DNA of 34,317 bases from Reclinomonas americana ATCC 50394. Its lineage: Eukaryota. Location: positions 1-34,317 of the forward strand of contig PS015223.1 of the NCBI GenBank assembly GCA_048213135.1. Reading direction: 5' to 3'. Position numbers and translations under genes: made by a program. Positions 4,576 through 29,547 of this stretch are shown here, piece after piece; position 1 is the first letter of the stretch, and each line of letters opens with the position of its first letter. Below the pieces are notes generated by a model, which did no database searches, was not told the origin of the DNA, and worked only from the letters and a program-made list of their open reading frames with translations.

Positions 4576-6718
4576 TGGTAGGAACGTAAACGTTGGACGA
4601 AGGAAGNNNNNNNNNNNNNNNNNNNNNNNNNNNNNNNNNNNNNNNNNNNNNNNNNNNNNNNNNNNNNNNNNNNNNNNNNNNNNNNNNNNNNNNNNNNNNN
4701 NNNNNNNNNNNNNNNNNNNNNNNNNNNNNNNNNNNNNNNNNNNNNNNNNNNNNNNNNNNNNNNNNNNNNNNNNNNNNNNNNNNNNNNNNNNNNNNNNNNN
4801 NNNNNNNNNNNNNNNNNCTTGTAGCGAGCGCGAGAAATTCGACGGAATGGTCGACGTGTTCTTCGTGTACAGGCCGTTGCCGGTGATGTTGAAGAAGGCG
4901 TTGTCGGTGTCGCCGGTGCCTGCCACCAGCGAGTATGTGAACTTGTCGACCATGTTCGGATCCGTGGTCGCCAGCGTGCCAATCAGTGTGCCATTCGCCA
5001 CCGGCAGCGGCAGCGGGTACGGGTCGGAGAGAATGGCCAGTGACATGCCAGTGGGCGCCACGTTGGTCTCCAGCAGCGCCAGATCCATGTCGAGCCACAG
5101 CTGACTGAACGTGTTGAGGGTGCGTACGCGCACCGTAACCGTTCCGGAAATGGGTGCGGCTCCAACGCGCAGCTGGTCGTTCTGTGTGCCGGCAAGTACA
5201 ACGGCATTGGCCGGCGTGCACGCCAAGATCGAGTACGTGTGGTTGCCGGGGCGGGTGTCGACCGTGGTCAGTGAGCCAATGAGGTCGCCAGCCGTGGAAG
5301 GGTAAGGGTACCGACTGTTGCTGAGAGTGATGTTGCTGGGTGGCACGGCCTCGAAGAAGGTGAACACGCGCTCCAGGTACATGCTGTTGCCGGGGTCCGT
5401 CACACGAAGGCGGATGGTCACGTCACCCGTGGGTGGCGTGTCAATCACCAGCGTGGAGTTGGAGACCTTGAACGCCCGCAGAGGCGTCTGTGAGGTGATG
5501 GTATACACACTCACATCTCCGGCATCGTCCGTGGAGGCAATGTTGGCCACCCACGCCCCGCTCACCGCCGGACTGCGGTAGAACGTGGTGTCGGCCTGAT
5601 CCACATGAAAGAGAGCAAGGGGGATGAGGGAGAGAGCCGTGAGTGAACAAGAACTGGAGGAGGAGGAAGAAGGAGGGCGGCCATACACACCTTGAGGTCG
5701 GAGGGCGAGTTGTTGACGGGAATCGTCACTGCCTTTTCCAGGAACAAGCCTGTCTGATCGGTGACGCGCAAGCGGATCTGCAGCGGTGGATTCTTAACAC
5801 TGAGATTCGGCAAGCCAGTGCCCGTGGCGGGCAAGTCCAGATTGCGCGTGTTGATCTTGAACAACCCATTGTCACGATCACCGTCACCGGCGACCAATGA
5901 GAAGGTAAAGGTGTCGGTAGGGTTCGGGTCACGAGCGTCAAGCGAGGCCACCGTGGAGCCGGCCGCGACCGGCAACGGCAGCGGCAGCGTGCTATTTGGT
6001 CGCGTGAAGATGAGCTGTGAAGGAGGTTGCGGAGCTGCGCCACGTGACAAATGAAGAGATACTTTTGCTTGAGCAAACAGGTAGAGGTAGGCGCACACTC
6101 TGCAAGTAGACGCAACGAGGCTGCTGATCACACTTGGGTCCCACCATGCCGTTGGTGCACTGGCAATTGTCGCCGGTGCGACCGGTGTGGCAGATGCACT
6201 TGCCGGTGTCGTCGCACTCGCCGAAACCACTGTGTGGAGGGAGCAGGCGTGAGAACAAAAGAAGGGGGATCGAAAACACGAGACAACTGCTGGCAGTGCC
6301 AACGAAACTTGCATGTCTCGACTGGGCGGCACTCGCAGCGTGTGCCGCCGAGGCCGGGAAAGCATGAGCACAGACCACCAACACACGTGCCGCCATTGTT
6401 GCAATCGGCGGCCGTCGTGCAAATGGGTGTGGCAGCATTGGTCTTGACGGCGGTCACTAGCGTACCATCTGCTCCCATCATGGCGGTGTCACCAGATAAG
6501 GGAGCGCTAGCGTTGAAGGCTCGCGCCATGGCGACTGCACAGCTGTGTGTCGTGAAGAAGAAAGAGTGNNNNNNNNNNNNNNNNNNNNNNNNNNNNNNNN
6601 NNNNNNNNNNNNNNNNNNNNNNNNNTTATCCAGCAACGCGCGCGCACACACAAACACACAGACACGCGATGAGGAGTGCGTGAGGTGAGCGAAATTTTGC
6701 AACGGTCACTTTTTTCAT
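1995..6718 (-). CDS. Large secreted or surface protein: putative signal peptide, EGF-like repeats, about 9 cadherin-like repeats, Cys-rich linker and GH2-like TIM-barrel domain (3' end lost in gap)
   Basis: Candidate ATG 6718 gives MKKVTVAKFRSPHALLIACLCAVAMARA. EGF-like segments CNNGGTCVGGLCSCFPGLGGTRC and CNGFGECDDTGKCICHTGRTGDNC lie at about 6120-6425. Repeats such as GTLATTDPNMVDKFTYSLVAGTGDTDNAFFNITG and VRATD..G span about 2890-6035. YKDHPALLAWSIG and IKVADSNHPV (about 2100-2260) match GH2/clan GH-A barrels. Confidence 0.8.
4529..4572 (+). repeat. (AG)n microsatellite in an intron of the cadherin-repeat gene
   Basis: About 22 perfect AG units next to an assembly gap. Confidence 0.95.
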
Positions 6719-8693: not shown

Positions 8694-9299
8694 TGTCTGC
8701 AAAAACAAATTTGATCGGAAAATTCTGTCGATCCGACAGTAAGGACGTCGTCGCACACTCTCGCTCCTTCTCCCATGCGCAGCTTGTAGCCGACGGCACG
8801 TACACACAAGCGCACCAGCGCACCACACTCGTTCTGGCACACATCGCCGACGTCGCGACAAAAAGGACGACGCATGGGACACAGCGATTGTCACGCAAAT
8901 CACACACACTTGCAGAATGGCCNNNNNNNNNNNNNNNNNNNNNNNNNNNNNNNNNNNNNNNNNNNNNNNNNNNNNNNNNNNNNNNNNNNNNNNNNNNNNN
9001 NNNNNNNNNNNNNNNNNNNNNNNNNNNNNNNNNNNNNNNNNNNNNNNNNNNNNNNNNNNNNNNNNNNNNNNNNNNNNNNNNNNNNNNNNNNNNNNNNNNN
9101 NNNNNNNNNNNNNNNNNNNNNNNNNNNNNNNNNNNNNNNNNNNNNNNNNNNNNNNNNNNNNNNNNNNNNNNNNNNNNNNNNNNNNNNNNNNNNNNNNNNN
9201 NNNNNNNNNNNNNNNNNNNNNNNNNNNNNNNNNNNNNNNNNNNNNNNNNNNNNNNNNNNNNNNNNNNNNNNNNNNNNNNNNNNNNNNNNNNNNNNNNNN

Positions 9300-9575
9300 G
9301 GAGGGAAGGAGGAGAGGAGAAGGAGAGACGAAGGAGAGGAGAAGGAGAGGAGAAGGAGAGGCGAAGGAGAGGAGAAGGAGAGGAGAAGGAGAGGAGAAGG
9401 AGAGGAGAAGGCGAGGAGAAGGCGAGGAGAACGAGAGGAGAACGAGAGGAGAACGAGAGGAGAAGGCGAGGAGAAGGAGAGGAGAAGGCGAGGAGAAGGA
9501 GAGGAGAAGGCGAGGAGAAGGAGAGGAGAAGGCGAGGAGAAGGAGAGGAGAGGGAGAGGAGAAGGAGAGAGGAAA
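9300..9575 (+). repeat. Tandem 11-bp purine repeat (GGAGAGGAGAA)n with variants; belongs to SF1 intron 1 once the contig is flipped
   Basis: Directly visible; it is the reverse complement of the repeat at 10529-10700. Confidence 0.95.
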
Positions 9576-9878: not shown

Positions 9879-10528
9879 GTGCTCGCGACGAATGCGCTCC
9901 TTTTCTGCACACACACACATGCAAACACAAAGTAAGAGACAAAGAGAAGAAGAAGAGAAGACAGAGAATGCAGACACGAAACCTTCATCAATCGGCTTCT
10001 TCGNNNNNNNNNNNNNNNNNNNNNNNNNNNNNNNNNNNNNNNNNNNNNNNNNNNNNNNNNNNNNNNNNNNNNNNNNNNNNNNNNNNNNNNNNNNNNNNNN
10101 NNNNNNNNNNNNNNNNNNNNNNNNNNNNNNNNNNNNNNNNNNNNNNNNNNNNNNNNNNNNNNNNNNNNNNNNNNNNNNNNNNNNNNNNNNNNNNNNNNNN
10201 NNNNNNNNNNNNNNNNNNNNNNNNNNNNNNNNNNNNNNNNNNNNNNNNNNNNNNNNNNNNNNNNNNNNNNNNNNNNNNNNNNNNNNNNNNNNNNNNNNNN
10301 NNNNNNNNNNNNNNNNNNNNNNNNNNNNNNNNNNNNNNNNNNNNNNNNNNNNNNNNNNNNNNNNNNNNNNNNNNNNNNNNNNNNNNNNNNNNNNNNNNNN
10401 NNNNNNNNNNNNNNNNNNNNNNNNNNNNNNNNNNNNNNNNNNNNNNNNNNNNNNNNNNNNNNNNNNNNNNNNNNNNNNNNNNNNNNNNNNNNNNNNNNNN
10501 NNNNNNNNNNNNNNNNNNNNNNNNNNNN

Positions 10529-10700
10529 CCTTCCCTCCTTCTCCTCTCCTTCTCCTCTCCTTCTCCTCTCCTTCTCCTCTCCTTCTCCTCTCCTTCGTCT
10601 CTCCTTCTCCTCTCCTTCTCCTCTCCTTCTCCTCTCCTCTCCCTCCCTCCTCCCCTCTCCTTCTCCTCTCCTTCTCCTCTCCTTCTCCTCTCCTCCTCCC
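10529..10700 (+). repeat. Tandem 11-bp pyrimidine repeat (TTCTCCTCTCC)n in SF1 intron 1
   Basis: Directly visible. Confidence 0.95.
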
Positions 10701-12486: not shown

Positions 12487-14623
12487 TTAGAGTACCACAC
12501 CCTCGGGCATGTGTGATTGCAGAATGGATATCTCCCCTGCCGCCAGACCAACGCCCGACTCGCGGATTCCATCTGCATAGCACACGTGTGCGTAAGAGTG
12601 GGAGTGTCTTGTGTGATTCCTTGCGACGACGTGAAATACCGTAGAACTCGCGAATTCGACTCTTGCACTCCACACGCTTCATGGCCAGCGCGTATCGCGG
12701 ATGACCGAGGACGCGAATCACGTCCGACACAAAGGCCGGCTCGAACGGTGGCTCGATCATGCCCAGCAACTGCATCGCCAGCGTAAGCACCTTACGCGCA
12801 CACACGACGGCGCAATGCGACATTCTCACCTCCATCATGCACTCGCGAATGAACGACAGATCGACGCTGTCGGAGGCGGCAAACTCGGCAAGTGCCGCCA
12901 GTGTCGCGTCGACGTGACCCAACTGAGCCAGCTGCACGAATATGGGGACAAACTGATTGCGATAGCCGACCTGTGCGTTCGCCATGGTGGCAGTGAGCAC
13001 TGAGCGACTCAATCTCTCTCTCCTCAGCACACACACACACCAACGGAGCCGGCTCGATCTTCTCCACAGTGGACGACACAATCTCCTTGGCCACGCGATA
13101 CACATGCAGTCGCTGTCGCGCTTGCCGTTCGTTGATCTGCGGGGAGGCTGGGTGAGATACAGAAGGGGGGGCACTTGGGAGATGCACAAACACGCGAACG
13201 GACCAGCAGCAGAATGTTGACAAAGGTGTTCACCGTGGCCGTGTCCTTGTACGCATCGCCGTGGAACTCGGCATCGGCAAACAGTGCACGCACCCACAGC
13301 AGCACACCGGCGCACACCAACGGAACACTATCCGTCCAAGTGAGTGGGGGGAATGGCAAAGAACATTTCGCGCAGAATCACACACTCCNNNNNNNNNNNN
13401 NNNNNNNNNNNNNNNNNNNNNNNNNNNNNNNNNNNNNNNNNNNNNNNNNNNNNNNNNNNNNNNNNNNNNNNNNNNNNNNNNNNNNNNNNNNNNNNNNNNN
13501 NNNNNNNNNNNNNNNNNNNNNNNNNNNNNNNNNNNNNNNNNNNNNNNNNNNNNNNNNNNNNNNNNNNNNNNNNNNNNNNNNNNNNNNNNNNNNNNNNNNN
13601 NNNNNNNNNNNNNNNNNNNNNNNNNNNNNNNNNNNNNNNNNNNNNNNNNNNNNNNNNNNNNNNNNNNNNNNNNNNNNNNNNNNNNNNNNNNNNNNNNNNN
13701 NNNNNNNNNNNNNNNNNNNNNNNNNNNNNNNNNNNNNNNNNNNNNNNNNNNNNNNNNNNNNNNNNNNNNNNNNNNNNNNNNNNNNNNNNNNNNNNNNNNN
13801 NNNNNNNNNNNNNNNNNNNNNNNNNNNNNNNNNNNNNNNNNNNNNNNNNNNNNNNNNNNNNNNNNNNNNNNNNNNNNNNNNNNNNNNNNNNNNNNNNNNN
13901 NNNNNNNNNNNNNNNNNNNNNNNNNNNNNNNNNNNNNNNNNNNNNNNNNNNNNNNNNNNNNNNNNNNNNNNNNNNNNNNNNNNNNNNNNNNNNNNNNNNN
14001 NNNNNNNNNNNNNNNNNNNNNNNNNNNNNNNNNNNNNNNNNNNNNNNNNNNNNNNNNNNNNNNNNNNNNNNNNNNNNNNNNNNNNNNNNNNNNNNNNNNN
14101 NNNNNNNNNNNNNNNNNNNNNNNNNNNNNNNNNNNNNNNNNNNNNAGTCTCTCTCACACACATCCACCTCACCTGCGGCTTTCCCTCTGCCTTGATGTAG
14201 CGCAACAGCAGTGTGAATGTGTCGCGCGACAGAATTGCATCGTCGGCCTTGAGTCGCTCTTCGCACTCTCGCCGTGTGCCCTCATTGGAGGCCGCCACTG
14301 CCGCCGCAGCCGCAGCAGCACCTGTTCCCGCTGAGGATGACGAAGATGAAGAGGAAGAAGAAGCGGGAAACGATGGTGGTGTCAATGTTGCAGGTGGCGA
14401 TGGAGATGTGCCCGTCGCAGTACGCTGCACACAGGCACACATGCACACACGCACATGCACAGGGAGGGAGGGAGAGGTGAGTGGCATGCATTGATCACAC
14501 ACACATCTCTGCAACATGCACACTCAGTCTCGCCTTGTCTCTCTCTGTCTGTCTGTTGTCTGCGTGTGTGTGAGTCTTCCACTCTACTCTGCATCTCACC
14601 TGCCGCGGCGGTGGTGGCTCCAT
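12487..14623 (-). CDS. NELFCD: Negative elongation factor C/D (TH1-like); central part hidden in gap 13389-14145
   Basis: N-terminal ECEERLKADDAILSRDTFTLLLRYIKAEGKPQ and C-terminal PLVCAGVLLWV...VDLSFIRECMMELLGMIEPPFEPAFVSDVIRVL align by eye with TH1L segments (EC...D.I....F..L.RY..AGG.P; PVVAMGVLKWV; DISLIRYFVTEVLDVIAPPY). Stop TAA 12487-12489. ATG 14623 is tentative. Confidence 0.8.
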
Positions 14624-14693
14624 GATATACACACGCGTATGCTTTGCAAAGGGCGGGGTCGTCCTTCGTTCCTCTTGTCCTCCGGGAAAACCA
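14624..14693. promoter_or_regulatory. Candidate 70-bp bidirectional promoter between NELF-C/D and GH30, with a GC box
   Basis: Divergent ATGs at 14623 (-) and 14694 (+); GGGCGGGG at 14651-14658. Confidence 0.4.
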
Positions 14694-17199
14694 ATGCATC
14701 GACGCGCGTGGGGTCTCCTGCTCTTGTTGCTGCTTCTTCTGGCACTGTCTGTCAGCAGCGCACTTGCCACATGGACAGCGCCTCCACAAGCTGTGCAAGT
14801 TGCGTGGCAGAGAACGAGCGGAACATACTCTCGGTGTGACTCTGACGCTGACTGTGTCTCTCTCACACGCATGCAGGTGGTGCAGAGTGCGCGCGACACT
14901 GGTGATCGATGGGCCACCAAACGTTACACCCTCCCGCGCACTGTTCTCTGCTCGGCCTTCCTCTCTCATTGTCTCTGCATCAGCTTCTATCCCATTTGTT
15001 CCGGCGCATCAGTTCCTGCTGGAGGATGTGGCAGCTTCGGAGGCGCCGCTGCAGCAACAGCAACTGTTGACAGTGAACATCACTGATCGGTATCAGCCGC
15101 TGAAGGGCTTTGGTGGAGCCATCACGGACGCGGTGGCGCACATTTTTGATGAGATGTCGGCGGAGCTGCAGGCGGAGGTGAGAGAGTGCAGAGGGAGTGA
15201 GGGGGGCTGTGAAGGACAAACTGATGTGATGTCGCGTCTTCGTGCAGGCGCTCGACCACATCTGGGGCGACAGGTGTGTCATTCTCTTGTCATGAACGTG
15301 TACATGGTATTAACATTGTTTGCGCGTTCGTATTATGCTCTCAGTGGACTCAAGTATGTCTTCACGCGGCTGACGATCGGGAGCTGCGACTTTTCCGTCG
15401 GCAGCTATTCGTACGACGACAGCGAGGGCGACTACAACATGGAGCACTTCTCGGTGGCTCACGACGAAGAGGTGTGTGCGACAGATCAAGTCGCGAGTTT
15501 CTTTTCCCTCACGGTTGTCGCAGAAAATCATCCCGCTCATTCACCGCGCCATGGACACGGCGGCCAAGTACAACCGCACCATCACCTTCTTGTCCACACC
15601 GTGGTCGCCGCCGGGTACGAGCCATTCGCTTCGTGGGTTTATTAACTGCGCTGACTCGTGTGTTTGCCTGTCTTGCAGCGTGGATGAAGCGCAATGTGAG
15701 CAATTATCCCTCTCGCTGCTACTCTTTTCCTTCGCGAACCTGACAATGTTCCGCAGCACGACATGCGCAACTCTGACAAGCCTGGACTGATTCAAGACCC
15801 AAAGATCTTCTCCGCCTGGGCCTTGTACCTGTCCAAGTTGAGTGCGCGTATCCTCTTGTTCGTCTCGCCGCAGCAGCAAATAAAACTCATCGCATGGTCA
15901 CTCGCAGGTACGTCACCGAGTACGGGAAGCGAGGTGTGCAAATCTCGGCCATCACTGTGGAGGTTGGTCTCATTTTGCACAATGCTGATATCGGTTCACT
16001 CACCAAATTACCGCCGACGCAGAACGAGCCGCACGTGTGTGAGCAGGCGAGTCTCCTTGATCTCTTTGACGATCTCTTCTCCGTTGCTAATATCCACCCA
16101 GTTCCTCGTCACCTACGAGTGCTGCTGTTTCAATGCCACGGAAGAAGCAAGCTTCCTGGCTGGCTATCTTGGTCCGCGACTCCGCGCCGACCACCCCTCT
16201 CTCCAGATCTACATCTACGATGATCAGAAGCCTCAGATGCCCGACTGTTGCGTCCCCTCCCTTCTTCAGTTTCGTCGCCATCTGCTGTGCCAACGACAAC
16301 ACGGCTGTGCAGACATCGCCTCTGTGATGAGCGATGCGATCGCGCGTCAGTATGGTTTGTTCAGCACACGTCGCTGTTGTTCGTCCAACGCTCTGTTGCT
16401 GACATTGCTGTTGTTGTAGTGGACGGAGGTACGAAGAGTGTGGTACGAGGTAACATTTCCTTCCTCGTTATCTCATTGCTGCGTTTCTCGCAGTGGCGTT
16501 TCACTGGTATGGCGGCAATCTGAAAAACGTTGCGTGCCTCCTCTCCTTGACCACGTGCGCGTCCATCTCCAACCTCCCTCTTGTGCAGTACCAGTACCTG
16601 GAGCAGGTGTACAAGAGCTTCCCGCAGCTGCCGCTCTACGCCTCGGAGGCCACACTGGAGGCACACTGGAAGCAGACGGATCACTGGGCGCAAGGCAGCA
16701 TGTGCGCACTACTGTGACAGATGTGCTCCACTCACTCAGTTGCACTCACTCCGCCCTCGATTATGGCAGGTATGCCGTGGATATTATCGGCGACATGAAT
16801 GCGCACACACGAATCTGGGTCGAGTGGAATGTGCTGCTTGACTCGGAAGGCGGACCGCAACATGCCCTCGGACCGTGCGACTCGCCGCTCCGCTACGATC
16901 GCGTCACCAAGAAACTGGAGTATGGCGAGCAGTACTGGCACATGGGTCACTTTTCGCGACACATACCGCCGGGCTCGGTACGCCTCGGCCTCAACCCCGT
17001 GCAAGATCCGCTGGGATCATTCATGGCGCTGGCGGCTGCCACGCCTGCTGGCGACGTTGTCGTCGTCGTGCTCAACCGCGGCAACGACCAGGTGCAGTTC
17101 GGGCTGCAGCTCGGCAACTACGTCGCTCCCATCACCATCCCGGCGCATGCCATTCAGACACTCACCATTCCGGCAGCTGCCGTCTCTCGGCAAATGTAA
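14694..17199 (+). CDS. Glycoside hydrolase family 30 (glucosylceramidase-like), secreted or lysosomal; about 16 exons
   Basis: Signal peptide [25 protein letters not shown]. Motifs YQPLKGFGGAITDA, RLTIGSCDFS, STPWSPPAWMK, acid/base TVENEP, YVDGVAFHWY, nucleophile YASEA, WVEWNVLLDSEGGP and MGHFSRHIPPGS. Stop TAA at 17199. Confidence 0.95.
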
Positions 17200-17312: not shown

Positions 17313-20300
17313 TTATGGCTCGTACACCGGGAAGTTTGGCGTAGTCTGTGCTCTGGCGGATAAGCAGAAAGGAGACAAACACGCAGCACACGCTCAGACA
17401 GCACATGGCAACAGCGCACCGCAATGCCGCAGTTGTTCTGGCGGTTGCGTGCCATCTTCACGTAGCCACTGCAGGAGAAACGCATGTGAGCGAAACGACT
17501 GCTCAAAAGCTGGATCGCACAGGCAATGTGCCACGCAACTCATCACCCCAGTGGGTCGACCACGAGCTGCAGCACGGAACCCTAACACATCAGTGCCTAC
17601 CCTCTTGCACCGTATAATTTTCATCGCGAGTTCACGCAACTTCTGCACAATCCAGTAGTCCTGTCCGGCGCCGTCAGAGCCGTAGCCGACCACCAGAACG
17701 GCTGCGCAGCGAGCACAGCAATGTAAGTCAGGAAGAGTGTGTTGGAGACACATGCATCGACACGCACCGTGATCGAGGGAAGCCGGGTCGCTCTTGCACG
17801 TCGGCTCGTAGTACACACCTGCATGCATGCAAGTGAGTTAAATCATGCATACGCATTCCTTTGTCGCAAACCGGAGTCACGAACCAGATCCGTCTGTGTT
17901 CAACGATGTGAGTGTCACGAAGGCACACAACAGGAAACGAGGCACTCAGACACCACCACGCAACAGTAGATGAACGAGTCGGCCACCATGATGGCGACAG
18001 ACACCGGGCCGTGGGTGGCCACAGCATTCATCTGCGTGCACACACACGAGTGTTGCGAGTGAGAGTCTGCTGGGAGAAAGTGCGCCAGCTGACAACGAAC
18101 CAGGTCGTTCTCGTCGCCCGCCGTGGTGTTGAAGTACTTGGTGACCTTGGCCACAGGGAAGGTGGGGTGGCAGAAGCCTGGGCGAGCAGAGAAAGAGAGC
18201 AAGAGCGTATTAGTATGCGCGGTATGAAAGAGGGTGAAGAACTCGTGCATACGCACCGTCAGCCATCAGGTACGGGTACTCCATCATGGCGCCAATGCCA
18301 CCGTTGTCGATGGCGTACTGGAAGACGTCCCACTCGTTGCCACCGTTGCAAGCTGTACGACAAAAAAACACAGTCATCGGTAAGAGGCGCTTGGGCACAT
18401 TGATTGTTGCCGCGGCACATACCCTGGTTGTCTGCAGAGAGAAAATCAATGAGTTCAGGAATTCATGAACGCATATGTGGAAAAGCAAACTCAACTCGGG
18501 TAGTCCCACATGCAGTCCATGGCCTGCTGGGGCGACAGGTTGGCCTGCACAGGGAAACATGAGGTGTCAGTCGTCATGCAGGTGTCCGTATAATGGCAGC
18601 CGCCGGAGAGCACACACCAGAATGCCTGCGAGAGTGAGGCAAGCACGCAGCAGTGAGCGTTGAGTGCTGTGACAATTTCAACAAGCTGCATGCACGCACC
18701 AGTCTTGATGGCCCACATGGAGGCAATGGAGCCGGTGCCGGAGAACGCCCAGCAGCTGCCGCACACTGCGGGGAAAAGAATGAGGGGATGAGATGTGAAA
18801 AGTCGGCGAACAGGCCTCGCCGCATACGTACCACCCTACGCACACAGAAACACAGAAGAGAAAGACATGTGAGACAACATGGATGACCAGAGCGTGACCC
18901 GCTTCATAAGGCTAACCTGGTCGCGCACTGGCAGCACAACATTCTTGCTGCGCCAGTCGAACGCCGGGGGGACCGGGGCGCCCTGCGTCACGAGTGCGTG
19001 AGGACGAGATCATTCATACAACGAGTGCGTGACAGCACTACTCACAGTGTGCTTGAACGTGGCGTGAGCATTGCTCGTCTCGGGGCGCCTGCAAGATCCA
19101 CCGCTGTGAGTACACTCACATTTCACAACGCGGCGGCGACACCGTGTACTCACGATCCGCGCTTCAGCAGCATGGTGGCGCGGAACTCCTCGGGGTGCCA
19201 GTCGGCCCACTTGTTGGCGCGCACTGCATTGTGATTATCATCAGCCACCAGCAACACACACATACAGCGCCACGAAAAGCGGTTCACGCAACGCTTGTGA
19301 GTCACATCGGTGCGCGCGTTGTGCTCGTTGATCAGACGCATGTTGCGCTCAAAGTTGGCGCGGCGTTGAGTGTACTCGTCGACGGTGGCGTACGACTGTG
19401 CGATTGGACGTATACAAATAATGAGCGGGGCACAGCAGGCGTCATCGACAGTGCATGATTGCGTGTTACCTTGCCAAACTCCTGCACAAACTCGTTGAAC
19501 TTGAGCGATGAGGCGTCGACGGCGTCGCTCATGTGCTGCGGGGACGGCATGATGCTGCGGAAGAACGAGCCCATGCGGTCGTGGCGGTGCATCGGTCCAT
19601 CCACGTCGCCGCGGGTGGCCGACGAGCTCTGGCAAATGTGCGGAACGATCAACATGTCCTCGCGCACCTCCTGCGGCCGGAAGAACAGGTAGTTGAAGAC
19701 GTACTCGTCGTAGTGCGAACCTGTGTGCACGGGAGTGAGAATCGAGGGTGGTGAGCACAGCGCGTGGTCTCTCGACTCACCACCAATGACATTGTAGCCG
19801 TACTGGATGTGGAAGCGCACGGGGCGGTTGTTGTCGTCGGCCGACACGTACATGGTGTAGTTGTTTTGCTGCAGTTGTGCTGCGGTTACAGAACGAAAGA
19901 GAGAAGACACAGACTCCCCAAACCAGAAGCTACCTTGGCACCATGCATCACCGTGTACTGCCACGCATTGCAACGGACACCTGCACGGGCGCACGCATCA
20001 GAAGGATACACATCGTCAGTCACACGAAACGGGAGCGCAACCAACCATCAATGTCGACGGGTGCCGAGGCCAGCGTGTAGCCGGTGAGGTCGGGCAGCAG
20101 GGAGGTGAGCGGCGGCGGCGAGTGGTGGAACACACCGATCTGCAGGCCACACACACGCACAGAGTGAGCATGTCATCATGACACACATGCTGGTGTCGGA
20201 ACTCAACGTAGCACGTCTCCACATCCTTGCGCGGGTAGAGCTCAAACGTGGTGTTGAGGTCGTTGCGGTACAGCGTGGTGTCCATGCCTAGGCACAAGAG

Positions 20301-20788
20301 TGAGCAATGCAGAGACTCAAAAGAGAGACAAAGAGAGAGAGCAAAAAGCACACCATCATAGTAGCGAATGGCCTCGCGACCCGAATCACGGTCGAGAGTC
20401 ACTTCAATGGGCTGCATCACAGAGTGTGTATCTGTGTGTGTTAGTGCACGCGCGCATACACACGAGGAGAGAGAAGACCAAGAAGAAAAAAGTCACCTCG
20501 CGAATGTGCGCATAAGGCCTGCATGCAATCAGTGTGTGTGAGGAATACCAATCATGATGCACACACACGCGGAAAAAACGACGCAACAGCTCAAGCACGA
20601 GGGCCATGGTGTACTGCGCACACACATCATGTGAGAGACTTGTGTGTTTACGTGCTCTCTCTGTGAATGCACACCTTGCTGGGCCACATAGGCGGTGCCA
20701 CTGCAGCAGCATCGGCCTCGGGGGCAAGCACGGCCGCTGCAACAAGCAGCAACAGAGCGGCGACAAGGAGAGCACTCACTCGGCGCAT
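17313..20788 (-). CDS. Papain-family (C1A) cysteine protease of the 26/29-kDa / CfaD type (N-terminal extension, I29 propeptide, catalytic domain); 27 exons
   Basis: Signal peptide from ATG 20788. GYNVIGGSHYDEY marks the 26/29-kDa family. ERFNIN-like EYTQRRANFERNMRLINEHN. Catalytic-domain motifs FDWR, PVRDQGVCGSCWAFS, LDHAVLVVGYG, YWIVQNSWSTHWGDDGY and NNCGIATTPNFP. Stop TAA 17313-17315. Confidence 0.95.
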
Positions 20789-20878: not shown

Positions 20879-23471
20879 TCAGTCCTGCTCGCCCATTTCA
20901 CTCATTGGTCGCTCCTCCAGTGCGGCCTCGGCGGCAGCGGCCTCAGCAGCGGCAATTGCGGCTTGTTCCTCTTCCCAGAGAGATACGGCACGCTCGCGGG
21001 CGACCTCGATTTCCGATTCTTCGACCTCGCTGGCGTTCTGTCGAAGATAGAGGTTAGCAGCCCGTCACAGTAGAAGAGAGAGATATATAGATGGCGCGGT
21101 GGTTGTCGCTTCTCACCAGCATCCTTATGTTGGGACCGGGCGTCGTGACGACGATGCCTTGCGGGTCAAAGAGCATGGCGTGAATGTCGCCAGGTGGGAA
21201 CTCCTCCAGATTCTCTGTGCTCACCGAGTGGCGGGTTAGGGATGCTGGCGCGCATCTGTTGTCCGCTCACTACTTGTGCTCACCTCTGGCGTCCAGCTCG
21301 GTCAGGCTCGGCAGGTGTCTCAGATGCGCAAACTCCTTGATGCTGGCCAGGTGGTTGTCGCACAGATTCAGCGAGGTGAGGTGCACGAGGCCGGCGGTGG
21401 CAAACTCGGCAAGCGACGAAATTCTGTTGGTGTTGAGGGTGAGGCTGCGCACGGACTGGAAGCGAGAGAGGCCGTCCAGCTTGAAAATGGCGTTGCTGGC
21501 CAGGCTCATGGTCTCCAGCACCGGCGAGTCCAGTTTCGGTAGTTGTGACAGGGCGTTGGTGCTGAGATCGAGGTGTCGTACAGACAGCAGGCCCGTCATG
21601 TCAAAGATCATGATGGAATTCTCTGTCGCCAGCGATGGTGAGGCGGGGAAGAGAGCGAAAGTGGAAGAGACAGGTGACTGACCAGAGAGGATTAGGGTTT
21701 GCAGATTGGCGCAGGCGGCTTGACCGCGCATGTAACGCAGACTATTGTCATGCATGTCCAGGTGTTCAAGTGATTCTGTGGGGAGGGGGGGGGGAGGTGT
21801 TCAGTGAGCACAACACTCGTATCTCTTTCACACACACACTCGCTTCTGTCTCTCTCTCTCTCTCACACACACTTGTTGTTGATAGCGCACCTCTTTGCAT
21901 CAGCGGCGTAATGTCGTGCACAATGTTGTGTTGCGCGGTGCAGCTGAGCAGGTGTGGCAGCTCGCCGAGGGGAGACACATCGCGAATGGCATTCTTCGAA
22001 ATGTTCACGTGCAACAGCGTCGACATGCGCGCCGTGCCACCCAAGTCGAGGATGCCAGCGTCGGCCAGGTCCAGTTGAGAGAAGCCGTAGTTTTCGCCGT
22101 CGGGTAGCAGCCGGATCTGCCATGCAACAACAACATTTTCAGAGAGCGAACACTTCCACCCTATTCTTGTGAGGGGTCGACGCAACGACGCTCAGTGCAT
22201 TGCACAGCTTCTCCTCGCTGCAGGGCTCGCCAGAAGGAAAGTCGGCCTCCACCACTTGTTGCATGACACGCATCAGGTCGTCAATGGTCCGACCCGGCGC
22301 CGGTTCCGACACACTGTGCAGCACCCAATCGATGCCCTCGCGGTACACCTTGCACAGCAGCAGGCCTGTGTCGTGGTGAGTCGGGTGAACACGAATGCGC
22401 GTGCACAGAGCATGTCAGCGCGAACCTGTGTGCGGACCCGCCGCATCCACCGACATCCACCACACGGGCTTGTCGTTCTTCGAGTCCAGCACACGACAGT
22501 GCGCCGACCGAACGTGCTCGAATGACACGCCCGAGAAGCTGTTCAGCACAATAAAGACCGCCTGTGTGCATGCAGACCCGAGTGTGAACGAACGCGGTGG
22601 TAGGGGGCATCACACCGCGCATACTGCAACGCGCAACGCAACATGCACACCGGCCGGCACCAAATCAAAATCGACCATCACCGTCTCATCGTCGCCATCG
22701 CCCTCGCCCGTGCGGTTATCGCCCGAGTGCACAATCGATCCATTGTCGTTGCGCAATTTGCGGAACCACACCGACTCTTGCGGCTCACCATTACGCGAAA
22801 ACGTGCCTGGGCGGTCACAAACGAAATTGAGTAAACGCATCGTCGTCGTCGCGGAGGCGGACATGCAAACTGCGCAACAGCACGACACGTCGAGATCGAC
22901 CGCTCCCAGTCCCACATGCTCGTCCATGTCCCATCCTACACAACACAGCTACATAAACAACAGACGCTCGGTCGCTGCGGGAAGGCGCAGCAGCAGCATA
23001 CCACATCCAAATTTCTGAACAACCGAACATGCCAAGAGGGATCAGTGAGTCCCACGGTGGCCACACGCACACACGCACACAAAGACAAACAGGGAGAGAG
23101 GAGGCTCACCAGTTTGCGTCGCGCTCCCAGTCGAACTCTATCCCAGCACAAAAACGCACAAGTTACATATGCAATAAAAACAACCCACTCGTCATCATCA
23201 ATCATCAAATCAAACGCAACGATGCTCCTCGATGCAACGACACCGCCTGCTGCCGCAACGCCCACCGTTCATCCGATGGATTGCCCGACATGGGCGACGG
23301 CGCCGATGAAGGCGCAGACGACTCCCCGCCCTCCTCCGCCACATGAATGCCCAGTCGACCGCCGCTGCCTCCCACACTGCTCCCACCCTCCTCTGCGTCA
23401 GCACCACCACCACCACCACGCGCAGAGGCAATGGCAATGTCAATGTCCATTCCACGCGCACTCAGATCCAT
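20879..23471 (-). CDS. Fusion protein: TerD (Ca2+-binding stress) domain + LRRC23/LRGUK-like leucine-rich repeats + acidic tail; 12 exons
   Basis: TerD motifs KLKFGCGWD, VDLDVSC, SIVHSGDNRTGEGDGDDETVMVDF, VLNSFSG and LLCKVYREG..W. These are followed in the same exon by PCSEEKLCNALSV, then YGFSQLDLADAGILDL...HVNISKNAIRDVSPLGELPHLL and SDS22-like LRRs. Stop TGA 20879-20881. Confidence 0.85.
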
Positions 23472-23734: not shown

Positions 23735-26055
23735 ATGGCCGAGTTTGACAACCCACTTGCGCGTCGAGTGTTGCGTCATCACACGCACACACGCGCACAC
23801 ATGAGGCACACACGCAGAGAGAGAGAAAGATAGACACGTCGAAGTGACACAATACCAACACACACACACACACTTCACACAAACCGTTCCTTTTCGTGCC
23901 GACAGACACATGCACTCACACACACTCACTCTCTTGCTCACTCTCTTGCTCACTCTCTTGTTCTTCTCTCCAGGCATGAGCAGTTGAGTCGACAGAATGA
24001 GCAACTGAGGGCCCAACAGAGCGAGCTGGACGACCACACCGAGTGGGTGCGTCAGCAGCAGGTGCCACAGGCGCCACTGAGTGCGCGCAGTGGTGGATCA
24101 TTAAAGCAACAACAACAGCAACAACACGGTTGCGTGGATTCTCTCTCTCTCAGCACACAGCACATGTGTCATCTTACTGGATCTCGATCGATGCAGATGG
24201 AGAGAGCGATGGCAGTGGATCGCCACTGGCAGCAGCAGCAGGTGGTGCTGCGGCGAGCAGTGTGTCGCCGGCGCCACGTCGCAGCCATAGCACGGGCGGG
24301 ACGCGTCCTCCAGTTGCGTTTCTCCACAGAGCGGGCCCGCCTAATGCGATGCTCACTCACACGCGCGCGCGCGCGTCACAGATTGAGGAGATCCTGCTGA
24401 ACAAGGGCAAGGAGTACAAGGAGAAGCTGGAGCGTCTGCGCGCTGAGGAGCTGGCGCGACAGCAGGCGGAGGTCACGGGCACGCCGTCGATTGCGCGCTT
24501 GCACACCGTGTCGTATGATCACTCCAAGCCGGTGGAGGAGCGGCTGCTGGAGATGGCGGCCAAGCGGCGTGAGATGCGGGAGCAAAAGGAGAAGGAGAAG
24601 GTGGAGGAGCCGGATCCAGAGCTCACGTTTAAGCCGCGCATCTCGGAGGCCTCCAAGAAGCGCCACTATGAGGGCGTGGAGCAGCACTTGTACTATCATT
24701 GGGTGCGTCTTTTTTTTCCCCTCCTCGTACTCCCCCTTTCTCCTTCTCGCTCACCTCTGCGCGCACGCATTCNNNNNNNNNNNNNNNNNNNNNNNNNNNN
24801 NNNNNNNNNNNNNNNNNNNNNNNNNNNNNNNNNNNNNNNNNNNNNNNNNNNNNNNNNNNNNNNNNNNNNNNNNNNNNNNNNNNNNNNNNNNNNNNNNNNN
24901 NNNNNNNNNNNNNNNNNNNNNNNNNNNNNNNNNNNNNNNNNNNNNNNNNNNNNNNNNNNNNNNNNNNNNNNNNNNNNNNNNNNNNNNNNNNNNNNNNNNN
25001 NNNNNNNNNNNNNNNNNNNNNNNNNNNNNNNNNNNNNNNNNNNNNNNNNNNNNNNNNNNNNNNNNNNNNNCCACACGTGGTGTGTGTGGAAGTTGGAAGT
25101 TGGAAGTTGACGAATCCTTATTGTTGTGCAGCCGACCACTGCGCAGGAGCGCCTGTTGCGCCACACGGCGTCGTCAGAGGCCGCTCGGTCACCCACCGCT
25201 GCCGCTGCACCGGGTGGCAGTCCGCAAAAGGGCGACGATGCCATGTTCCGGCCGCAGATCAACTCCAACAGCCGCGAGATGGAGAGGCGCACGGGCCCGC
25301 GCACTGATCGCAATCTGGCGCTGTTTGAGCTGGTTTGTACCTGTGTTTTCTTTCTCTCTTTCTCATTGGCACTCAAGTTTCTCTTTCGCAGAGCAAGCGC
25401 AAGCGCGAAGCTCAGGAGCAGCAGAACCGCCAGCAGGCGATCGAGGAGAAGGAGCTGGAGGAGTGCACGTTCTCGCCCAAGATTCGCAAGCCGCGTGGCG
25501 GGTTCGTCTTCAGCCACCCCCTGTTCCTCCTCCCTCGTGCAGCTTTCTTAGGCCCTCTCTTGTGTTCCTCGCGCAGTGGTAACCTGGCCGGCAGCGTTGT
25601 CGACCGTGCGCATCAGTGGGCCAAGAATCGCCAGAGCCGCATACAGAGTGAGCAGGATTCGCGCGCACAGGAGGAGCTCAAGGAGTGCACGTTTACGCCC
25701 AAGATTTCGGTGGGGAACGCTGTCGCTCATGAACGAATGCGTATGTCTACAGCGTTCTCACCCTCTCTCCCTTCACCTACAGGGACCTCCGAGGACACCG
25801 GTCAGTGGCAGTCTGACGCCGCGCAGCCCATTGGCCAGCGCCGTGAGCGAGGTGGCGCCGTCGCCATCGGCGGGCTCGGTGGCACCGGGCGTGGATGAGT
25901 ACGTGGAGCGCGTGCGCAGCGCGCGCAAGAAGAAGGAGGAGCTGGAAAAGTCGACATTTGTGTCGGGCGCCAACTGGCAGCCGCGCCTCACCAAGGGCAA
26001 GGCACCGAAGCTCGGCCGCGAGGCACACGATGTGAGCATCAAGTCGCTGAAGAGG
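23735..26055 (+). CDS. Charged coiled-coil protein with repeated (E)xTFxPxI motifs, probably cytoskeletal; incomplete (internal and 3' gaps)
   Basis: Motifs ELTFKPRIS, MFRPQINSNS, ECTFSPKI and ECTFTPKIS sit among E/K/R-rich helices, with exons bounded by GT/AG. Start ATG 23735 is tentative. Confidence 0.7.
23925..23960 (+). repeat. 3 x 12-bp tandem repeat CTCACTCTCTTG in an intron pyrimidine tract
   Basis: Directly visible. Confidence 0.85.
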
Positions 26056-26346
26056 GTACGTTGATATGCGGAAAGGGGGGGACAGGGGGGGGGGAAGGAA
26101 ATCTGTGATCTCATATTTGNNNNNNNNNNNNNNNNNNNNNNNNNNNNNNNNNNNNNNNNNNNNNNNNNNNNNNNNNNNNNNNNNNNNNNNNNNNNNNNNN
26201 NNNNNNNNNNNNNNNNNNNNNNNNNNNNNNNNNNNNNNNNNNNNNNNNNNNNNNNNNNNNNNNNNNNNNNNNNNNNNNNNNNNNNNNNNNNNNNNNNNNN
26301 NNNNNNNNNNNNNNNNNNNNNNNNNNNNNNNNNNNNNNNNNNNNNN

Positions 26347-28762: not shown

Positions 28763-29547
28763 GTAGCAGCTTCACGCGCGCCATCTGTGCATGAGAGTAT
28801 GNNNNNNNNNNNNNNNNNNNNNNNNNNNNNNNNNNNNNNNNNNNNNNNNNNNNNNNNNNNNNNNNNNNNNNNNNNNNNNNNNNNNNNNNNNNNNNNNNNN
28901 NNNNNNNNNNNNNNNNNNNNNNNNNNNNNNNNNNNNNNNNNNNNNNNNNNNNNNNNNNNNNNNNNNNNNNNNNNNNNNNNNNNNNNNNNNNNNNNNNNNN
29001 NNNNNNNNNNNNNNNNNNNNNNNNNNNNNNNNNNNNNNNNNNNNNNNNNNNNNNNNNNNNNNNNNNNNNNNNNNNNNNNNNNNNNNNNNNNNNNNNNNNN
29101 NNNNNNNNNNNNNNNNNNNNNNNNNNNNNNNNNNNNNNNNNNNNNNNNNNNNNNNNNNNNNNNNNNNNNNNNNNNNNNNNNNNNNNNNNNNNNNNNNNNN
29201 NNNNNNNNNNNNNNNNNNNNNNNNNNNNNNNNNNNNNNNNNNNNNNNNNNNNNNNNNNNNNNNNNNNNNNNNNNNNNNNNNNNNNNNNNNNNNNNNNNNN
29301 NNNNNNNNNNNNNNNNNNNNNNNNNNNNNNNNNNNNNNNNNNNNNNNNNNNNNNNNNNNNNNNNNNNNNNNNNNNNNNNNNNNNNNNNNNNNNNNNNNNN
29401 NNNNNNNNNNNNNNNNNNNNNNNNNNNNNNNNNNNNNNNNNNNNNNNNNNNNNNNNNNNNNNNNNNNNNNNNNNNNNNNNNNNNNNNNNNNNNNNNNNNC
29501 TTCTTGTTTCCTTTGCTGTCATTGTGCATGGCTCACGGCTGGTGCAG

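Follow-up and report, generated by a model that had tools for sequence, protein, structure and literature searches.

The window analysed here, a 34,317-nucleotide (nt) stretch of DNA from Reclinomonas americana ATCC 50394 (contig PS015223.1 of NCBI GenBank assembly GCA_048213135.1, positions 1 to 34,317 of the forward strand), contains on its minus strand at 18832..18835 the four bases GGTG, which are very probably a real coding exon. The sequence suggests that this exon lies between two ordinary short introns of a functional gene for a secreted papain-family protease of the EPDR+cathepsin type. GGTG, together with the bases TG at the start of the following exon, would supply a Gly-Val pair and set the fixed spacing from the oxyanion-hole Gln to the catalytic Cys of CGSCW. 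A preliminary description of the site agrees exactly with the minus-strand sequence in its letters, coordinates, phases and intron lengths (81 and 66 nt). The gene and the features around GGTG are as follows.

17313..20788, minus strand: whole protease coding region, from the coordinate-built model, blastp and a profile of 12 relatives
18917..18982, minus strand: exon 13, 66 nt, start of the mature domain, ending at the oxyanion-hole Gln (…VRDQ); Pfam family PF00112 positions 1-20 and PDB alignments
18836..18916, minus strand: intron 13, 81 nt, phase 0, GTTAGC...GCGTAG; donor 4.8 bits, acceptor 4.2 bits
18832..18835, minus strand: exon 14, GGTG, 4 nt, predicted to supply Gly and the first base of Val in DQGVCGSCW
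18766..18831, minus strand: intron 14, 66 nt, phase 1, GTACGT...CCGCAG; donor 6.5 bits, acceptor 9.1 bits
18700..18765, minus strand: exon 15, 66 nt, CGSCW with the catalytic Cys; PF00112 positions 23-43, 22.0 bits (cutoff 20.7)

Exon 13 ends at 18917 (minus strand) with the codons GAC CAG, exon 15 opens with TG TGC GGC AGC TGC TGG at 18765, and inclusion of GGTG between them gives DQGVCGSCW. The translated exon 15 matches pro-cathepsin H (6czk_A) with an E value of 1.1e-5. GGTG has canonical AG/GT borders and is flanked by two workable introns with their own signals. In intron 13 a branch-like CTCAC lies 34 nt from the 3' end, and intron 14 carries CTCAT and TTCAC motifs of this kind. The final 30 nt of the two introns are 77% and 83% pyrimidine, respectively, as compared to a mean of 62% at the 3' ends of the other introns.

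The exon borders of the gene were placed by hand from the sequence and then verified by coordinates. On the minus strand, from the ATG at 20788 to the stop codon at 17315-17313, the model comprises 27 exons and 26 introns of 47-85 nt, all GT-AG, and yields a single open frame of 562 amino acids (aa). An exhaustive HMMER search, for which the open frame covering exons 8 and 9 served as query, returned three proteins at E<=0.001, one of which, P0003 (543 aa), is a true relative. P0001 and P0002 from this search are repetitive and matched in numerous short stretches; they were treated as spurious and excluded from all alignments. With P0003 as the seed, a further search found 52 proteins at E<=1e-10, some of them named 'digestive cysteine proteinase' (Anaeramoeba ignava, Patiria miniata) or, in UniRef, 'Counting factor associated protei...'. 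The spliced model aligns end to end with 12 full-length relatives at 31-37% identity and scores 552 bits (552.2) on their profile; on the profile of the 52 relatives, all with PF00112, it scores 379.7 bits. The best relative is P0008, with 36.5% identity over 559 aa (blastp, E 2e-114) and residues 9-559 aligned.

The need for a short coding element between exons 13 and 15 follows from the spacing of the active-site motif. In PF00112, exon 13 ends at position 20 (Gln) and the in-frame part of exon 15 begins at position 23. Solved chains point to the same distance, with Gln at n and the first Cys at n+3, that is, exactly two residues between them, in all nine chains from both PDB searches (6p4e_A, 8jcq_A, 1m6d_A, 2p7u_A, 6ex8_A, 3f75_A, 2fo5_A, 6czs_A and 6czk_A). 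Among the 52 relatives, the motif was readable by regular expression in 45 and gave no match in 7. The gap from Gln to Cys is two residues in 43 of the 45 (41 counted directly; P0012 and P0017 read from the printed match), and the remaining two have a longer insert, NQHIPQYCG.CW. This spacing is satisfied only if two residues come from between exons 13 and 15. A two-residue gap needs six bases; two of them (TG) come from exon 15, and four must therefore come, in phase 0, from the 151-nt interval.

GGTG is needed for the frame as well as for conserved residues. Without it, the score on the profile of 12 relatives drops by 299 bits and five stops appear. The preliminary description had held that only GGTG restores the frame, which proved too strong, as three other GT-AG-compatible, frame-keeping solutions exist. 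The interval holds 14 internal AG-x-GT candidates, four of which keep the frame (a 13-nt exon, a single G, GGTG and GCCT). The 13-nt candidate was discarded because it would require a 5-nt intron. The frame also survives if intron 13 is spliced out and intron 14, at 66 nt and free of stops, is kept. The alternatives to GGTG are listed below.

18835, minus strand: 1-nt exon G, donor GTGGTA (-1.3 bits), giving DQVCGSCW
18815-18812, minus strand: 4-nt exon GCCT between introns of 101 and 46 nt, acceptor -6.6 bits and donor 2.5 bits, giving DQALCGSCW
18835-18700, minus strand: intron 13 removed alone, with the 66-nt stop-free intron 14 kept, giving a 22-residue insert

On the profile of 12 relatives, these solutions score 552.2 bits (GGTG), 551.6 (GCCT), 544.5 (1-nt exon), 524.0 (intron 14 retained) and 253.1 (GGTG skipped). 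The motif had also been described as the canonical Q-G-x-C-G-S-C-W; its spacing is borne out by Pfam, PDB and the relatives, whereas the Gly of 'QG' is not conserved in the subfamily. The two residues after Gln in the 12 relatives are IF, VI, VA, AV (three times), GA, AI (twice), GS, AS and GV. Homology therefore fixes the spacing and not the letters.

Splice signals, on the other hand, can separate GGTG from GCCT. A matrix derived from the 24 remaining introns of the gene model was used to score the sites, and 256 GTs and 111 AGs served as decoys. The donor after GGTG scores 6.5 bits, at the 98th percentile of the decoy GTs, the leave-one-out mean of true donors being 5.0; its sequence, GTACGT, matches GTAAGT at five of six positions. 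The acceptor before GGTG scores 4.2 bits, at the 93rd percentile of the decoy AGs. The lengths of introns 13 and 14 are consistent with the other 24 introns, which measure 68.3 +/- 7.3 nt (range 47-85), whereas a single 151-nt intron in their place would be 11.3 standard deviations longer than these.

The probability of such a site arising by chance is low. Out of 100,000 simulated intron-like sequences of 151 nt, 80 contain a 4-nt exon that matches or exceeds both splice scores, and 18,660 contain any AG-N4-GT that leaves two introns of at least 47 nt. Both strands of the window hold 206 AG-N4-GT sites, two of which, the GGTG site itself and one at 2693, reach both scores. The second 4-nt exon candidate, at 2693-2690, was rejected, as the reading frame runs on past it and the site is thus the acceptor of a normal exon. 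Profile spacing, splice scores, intron lengths, codon usage and the ungapped alignment with 12 relatives together identify a separate 4-nt exon as the best solution, in agreement with the preliminary description.

The predicted protein opens with a sequence resembling a signal peptide, followed by an N-terminal domain of ~190 aa, the I29 propeptide and the papain-family mature domain (C1A). The catalytic Gln, Cys, His and Asn all stand in conserved columns of the 12-relative alignment (DQGVCGSCW, LDHAV and VQNSWS). Matches to PF00112 are collinear, exons 13, 15, 19, 21, 24 and 26 covering positions 1-20, 23-43, 66-93, 128-148, 169-187 and 197-214, respectively. Only exon 15 exceeds the curated cutoff of PF00112 by itself (22.0 vs 20.7 bits). 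Pfam searches with single exon translations gave no match for 5 of 10 pieces in the first set and 5 of 8 in the second, and four pieces of the mature domain were without a PF00112 match in these searches. The propeptide and the remaining catalytic residues are located as follows.

19293..19395, minus strand: exon 10, core of the I29 propeptide inhibitor; PF08246, 32.6 bits (cutoff 24.4)
17540..17818, minus strand: exons 23-25, catalytic His (…LDHAVLVVGYG) and Asn (…VQNSWSTHWG); exon 24 matches PF00112 169-187, 12-relative alignment

The N-terminus looks like a signal peptide when judged by eye. In the blastp alignments, the model enters at residues 6-13 and the relatives P0008, P0003, P0009, P0012, P0006 and P0015 at residues 2-7, and the N-terminal domain shares the conserved blocks LPDLT and RPVRFH...GSHYD.Y with the relatives. 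Apart from PF00112, PF08246 and weak side matches, Pfam searches gave no family on the N-terminal exons of the window or, at E<=1, on five relatives. The end-to-end homology places the protease in the EPDR+cathepsin clade (CfaD-like). Because Pfam families do not detect the N-terminal domain, its fold is taken from PMC6363788, which assigns an ependymin / LolA-like fold to this domain in the clade; for the present protein the fold is putative.

Several observations weigh against GGTG as a coding exon of a working gene. The locus is known here from genomic sequence alone, and the inclusion of the exon is read from DNA. Homology cannot separate GGTG from GCCT, the two being 0.6 bits apart on the family profile, because Ala or Val frequently stands in this subfamily in place of the Gly of classic papains. 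The acceptor before GGTG (TAG) is only moderate, with 3 of the 24 true acceptors scoring lower than its 4.2 bits, and the donor of intron 13 lies at the 90th percentile of the decoys. The splice matrices are built on 24 introns of one hand-made model and are therefore not independent of its exon calls. Intron 14 is frame-neutral and stop-free, and a message retaining it would therefore escape destruction by a stop codon. A word search with exon 9 (83 aa) for a protein of the same organism or near relatives gave 21 candidates, none scoring, and a protein word search with the open frame 18494-18835 gave 86, again none scoring. In metagenomes, 134 pattern matches to exon 9 were found, of which tblastn confirmed 0, and no orthologous locus emerged. 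A degenerate DNA pattern for the site (AG-GGNN-GT, short intron, AG-NN-CGSCW) returned at least 120 metagenome stretches; none of the 121 pattern matches screened has Gln-Gly directly upstream or a papain-like continuation, translations being judged by eye. These matches are attributed to chance because the pattern permitted too many codons at the Ser position.

If intron 13 alone were removed, 18835-18700 would form a 136-nt exon with a 22-residue insert between Gln-Gly and Val-Cys, as the main product or a frequent isoform. An automatic gene finder would probably choose this form, the length of intron 14 being a multiple of 3 without an in-frame stop, and PMC2397502 and PMC8831610 describe intron retention as the usual alternative form where introns are short. 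The retained form nevertheless falls 28 bits below GGTG on the family profile, and none of the 45 relatives whose motif could be read carries so large an insert. When treated as coding sequence (CDS), intron 14 has a codon-usage log-odds of -11.6 and a GC content at third codon positions (GC3) of 0.46; both values fall outside all 539 CDS windows, and the codon score compares with a minimum of -2.6 in these windows and a maximum of -5.6 in 46 intron windows. Its donor (6.5 bits) and acceptor (9.1 bits) are strong. Introns 2, 4, 8, 10, 14, 20 and 23 (7 of the 26) are multiples of 3 and stop-free on read-through, so the open frame of intron 14 is unremarkable and means little. Retention as a main or frequent form is accordingly considered very improbable.

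Equally improbable is that the gene is an unexpressed or decaying copy, in which the 4-nt exon is a leftover or a coincidence. The failure of the word searches with exon 9 and frame 18494-18835 to find a protein of the same organism would fit such a copy. Against this stand the 562-aa frame, open over 27 exons, the 26 GT-AG introns out of 26, the four catalytic residues, the end-to-end homology, and the rarity of such a site in simulation (80 in 100,000). GC3 in the CDS is 0.83 as compared to an overall GC content of 0.52 in the introns, and codon bias is therefore maintained.

Use of another tiny exon, either the single G at 18835 or GCCT at 18815-18812, is the least probable of these explanations, even though both keep the frame with GT-AG borders, 1-nt exons are known in plants according to PMC8831610, and GCCT nearly equals GGTG on the profile, since the single G has a donor at the 42nd percentile of decoys and loses one residue of the fixed spacing (7.7 bits below GGTG), while GCCT has a poor acceptor after a purine-rich stretch and flanking introns that both lie beyond the 47-85 nt range of the other 24.

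For the 4-nt exon GGTG, a mechanism of recognition can be proposed. Introns 13 and 14 would each be recognised across themselves (intron definition), each having its own GT, branch-like motif, pyrimidine tract and AG. Because a mere 4 nt separate the 3' splice site of intron 13 from the 5' splice site of intron 14, the two introns are most likely not engaged together. Factors on these two splice sites could hardly be co-resident around GGTG, and the introns would be removed one after the other. The first removal would place GGTG within a 70-nt exon, and the remaining intron would then be an ordinary one. From the sequence we infer the inclusion of GGTG, its constitutive use and the sequential order of splicing. 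Intron definition, suggested also in the preliminary description, would fit the uniform short introns of the gene and what PMC8831610 reports on tiny exons; as an explanation for tiny exons it is not a new idea.

Three further exons of the same gene are shorter than 10 nt. Each is required for the frame and for conserved residues.

18618..18625, minus strand: exon 16, 8 nt, G-I-L in KTGILANLS; ungapped vs 12 relatives
18423..18431, minus strand: exon 18, 9 nt, N-N-Q-A before CNGG (PNNQACNGG); ungapped vs 12 relatives
17885..17893, minus strand: exon 22, 9 nt, Y-G-S-G in FIYYGSGVYY; ungapped vs 12 relatives

These 8-, 9- and 9-nt exons are the best internal sign that the splicing machinery copes with tiny exons. 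Agreement with GTAAGT reaches 4-5 of 6 positions in the donors that follow the four tiny exons, vs a mean of 3.56 (one-sided Mann-Whitney p 0.03, n=4; weak), and the pyrimidine content of the eight introns that flank tiny exons, tested against the other 18, shows a weak trend in a small sample (p 0.05). The source eukaryote may routinely build genes from exons of <10 nt, a generalisation that is possible but doubtful at present. Should this apply across the genome, the lineage would offer a natural system where adjacent introns are as a rule, and not just rarely, spliced in order and by intron definition alone, and its public gene models would be systematically wrong at tiny-exon sites.

The gene as a whole is dense in introns, with 26 in 1.69 kb of coding sequence (~15 per kb). 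Four of its exons measure 4-9 nt and seven are <=30 nt, the lengths being as follows.

Exons 1-9 (nt): 114, 26, 22, 58, 101, 94, 47, 88, 251
Exons 10-18 (nt): 103, 70, 43, 66, 4, 66, 8, 49, 9
Exons 19-27 (nt): 96, 77, 67, 9, 51, 61, 27, 49, 33

A YTNAY motif occurs 8-45 nt from the 3' end in 25 of the 26 introns. With 7 of 26 introns stop-free and multiples of 3, intron retention in this gene would unusually often meet no penalty from stop codons. Five introns (2, 10, 21, 24 and 25) open with a common eight bases, GTTGCGTG or GTTGCGTC, and an intron of another gene near 2786 on the minus strand opens with GTTGCGTA. This type of 5' splice site (GTTGCGTG/GTTGCGTC), which matches GTAAGT at two of six positions, may be a lineage-specific consensus. 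When the 26 introns were compared all against all by blastn-short, no pair reached E<=1e-3, and an origin of the introns as copies of one mobile element (introners) was therefore rejected for this gene.

The neighbourhood of the protease gene contains other apparent genes. On the plus strand, at ~14600-17199, lies a gene of glycosyl hydrolase family 30 (GH30; glucosylceramidase-like) with many exons over three frames and a long last exon. This gene and the protease gene are convergent, with ~113 nt between their stop codons (17199 / 17313). Upstream of the protease gene and on the same strand, 21273-21800 holds a leucine-rich-repeat open frame (LRR_4 8.8e-16, LRR_8 1.1e-13). Another intron-bearing gene is found on the minus strand at 2690-2790, where one exon ends ...GAC ACT TGC and the next starts ACT GGT GGC TGC; its intron is ~90 nt with a long pyrimidine tract, and the long open frames around it gave no Pfam family. 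An 11-nt purine-rich tandem repeat, AGGAGAGGAGA, is present in ~24 copies at 9310-9569, and its complement in ~15 copies at 10535-10699, with an N run between them. The window has nine N runs totalling 3,362 bases (1783-1994, 4607-4817, 6569-6625, 8923-9299, 10004-10528, 13389-14145, 24773-25070, 26120-26346 and 28802-29499). Because of these runs, the very long all-frame 'open frames' and the apparent low GC content at 8-14 kb and 28-30 kb are artefacts.

A gene finder that misses GGTG would either keep the 66-nt intron, with a 22-residue insert in the active site, or break the frame, and a protease predicted to be secreted and apparently active would then be labelled aberrant. With two short introns 4 nt apart and three further tiny exons, the locus is a compact natural test case, which could show the order of removal of adjacent introns when an exon is too small for factors on both sides. 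The principle of ordered removal around tiny exons is already described for plants and animals. A limited open-access word search for micro-exons with cysteine proteases or cathepsins, or for intron definition in protists, returned nothing on this gene family. Tiny coding exons (1-15 nt) are already documented, and GGTG adds a case; what might deserve further attention is the density of such exons, four of <10 nt within a single gene of 27 exons.

Recursive splice sites (ratchet points) of long animal introns have adjoining 3' and 5' splice sites and are removed in two steps, with nothing kept. The GGTG site resembles them in having a 3' splice site beside a 5' splice site, with the flanking RNA predicted to go in two successive steps. 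It differs from them in keeping four bases, and its interval is merely 151 nt, which presents no length problem to solve.

At the level of the protein, the EPDR+cathepsin clade as described in PMC6363788 includes the secreted CfaD of Dictyostelium. The present protease would have the same layout, consisting of a signal-peptide-like start, an N-terminal domain of ~190 aa, I29 and C1A, whereas its closest relative is just ~37% identical to it.

The human gene MPC1 contains a microexon of 4 bp, reported as constitutive in PMC9929638. GGTG has the same size, which is not a multiple of 3, and a similar constitutive inclusion would be expected of it. The vertebrate exon is reported there to depend on strong exon-defining regions, whereas recognition across short introns is likelier for GGTG.

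A further parallel in splicing is offered by plants, in ten of which PMC8831610 reports 2,398 exons of <=15 nt, including the 1-nt exons of APC11 and VPS55 validated by reverse-transcription PCR (RT-PCR). According to the same source, the spliceosome cannot occupy both introns flanking such a micro-exon, and the introns compete, one of them being removed later; plant microexons are also commonly missed by annotation. Like these, GGTG would be a tiny coding exon between canonical introns that is needed for the frame and conserved residues. The plant cases as reported rest on RNA sequencing and RT-PCR, whereas GGTG is known from genomic sequence; it also belongs to another lineage, and its flanking introns are very short and uniform (66 and 81 nt).

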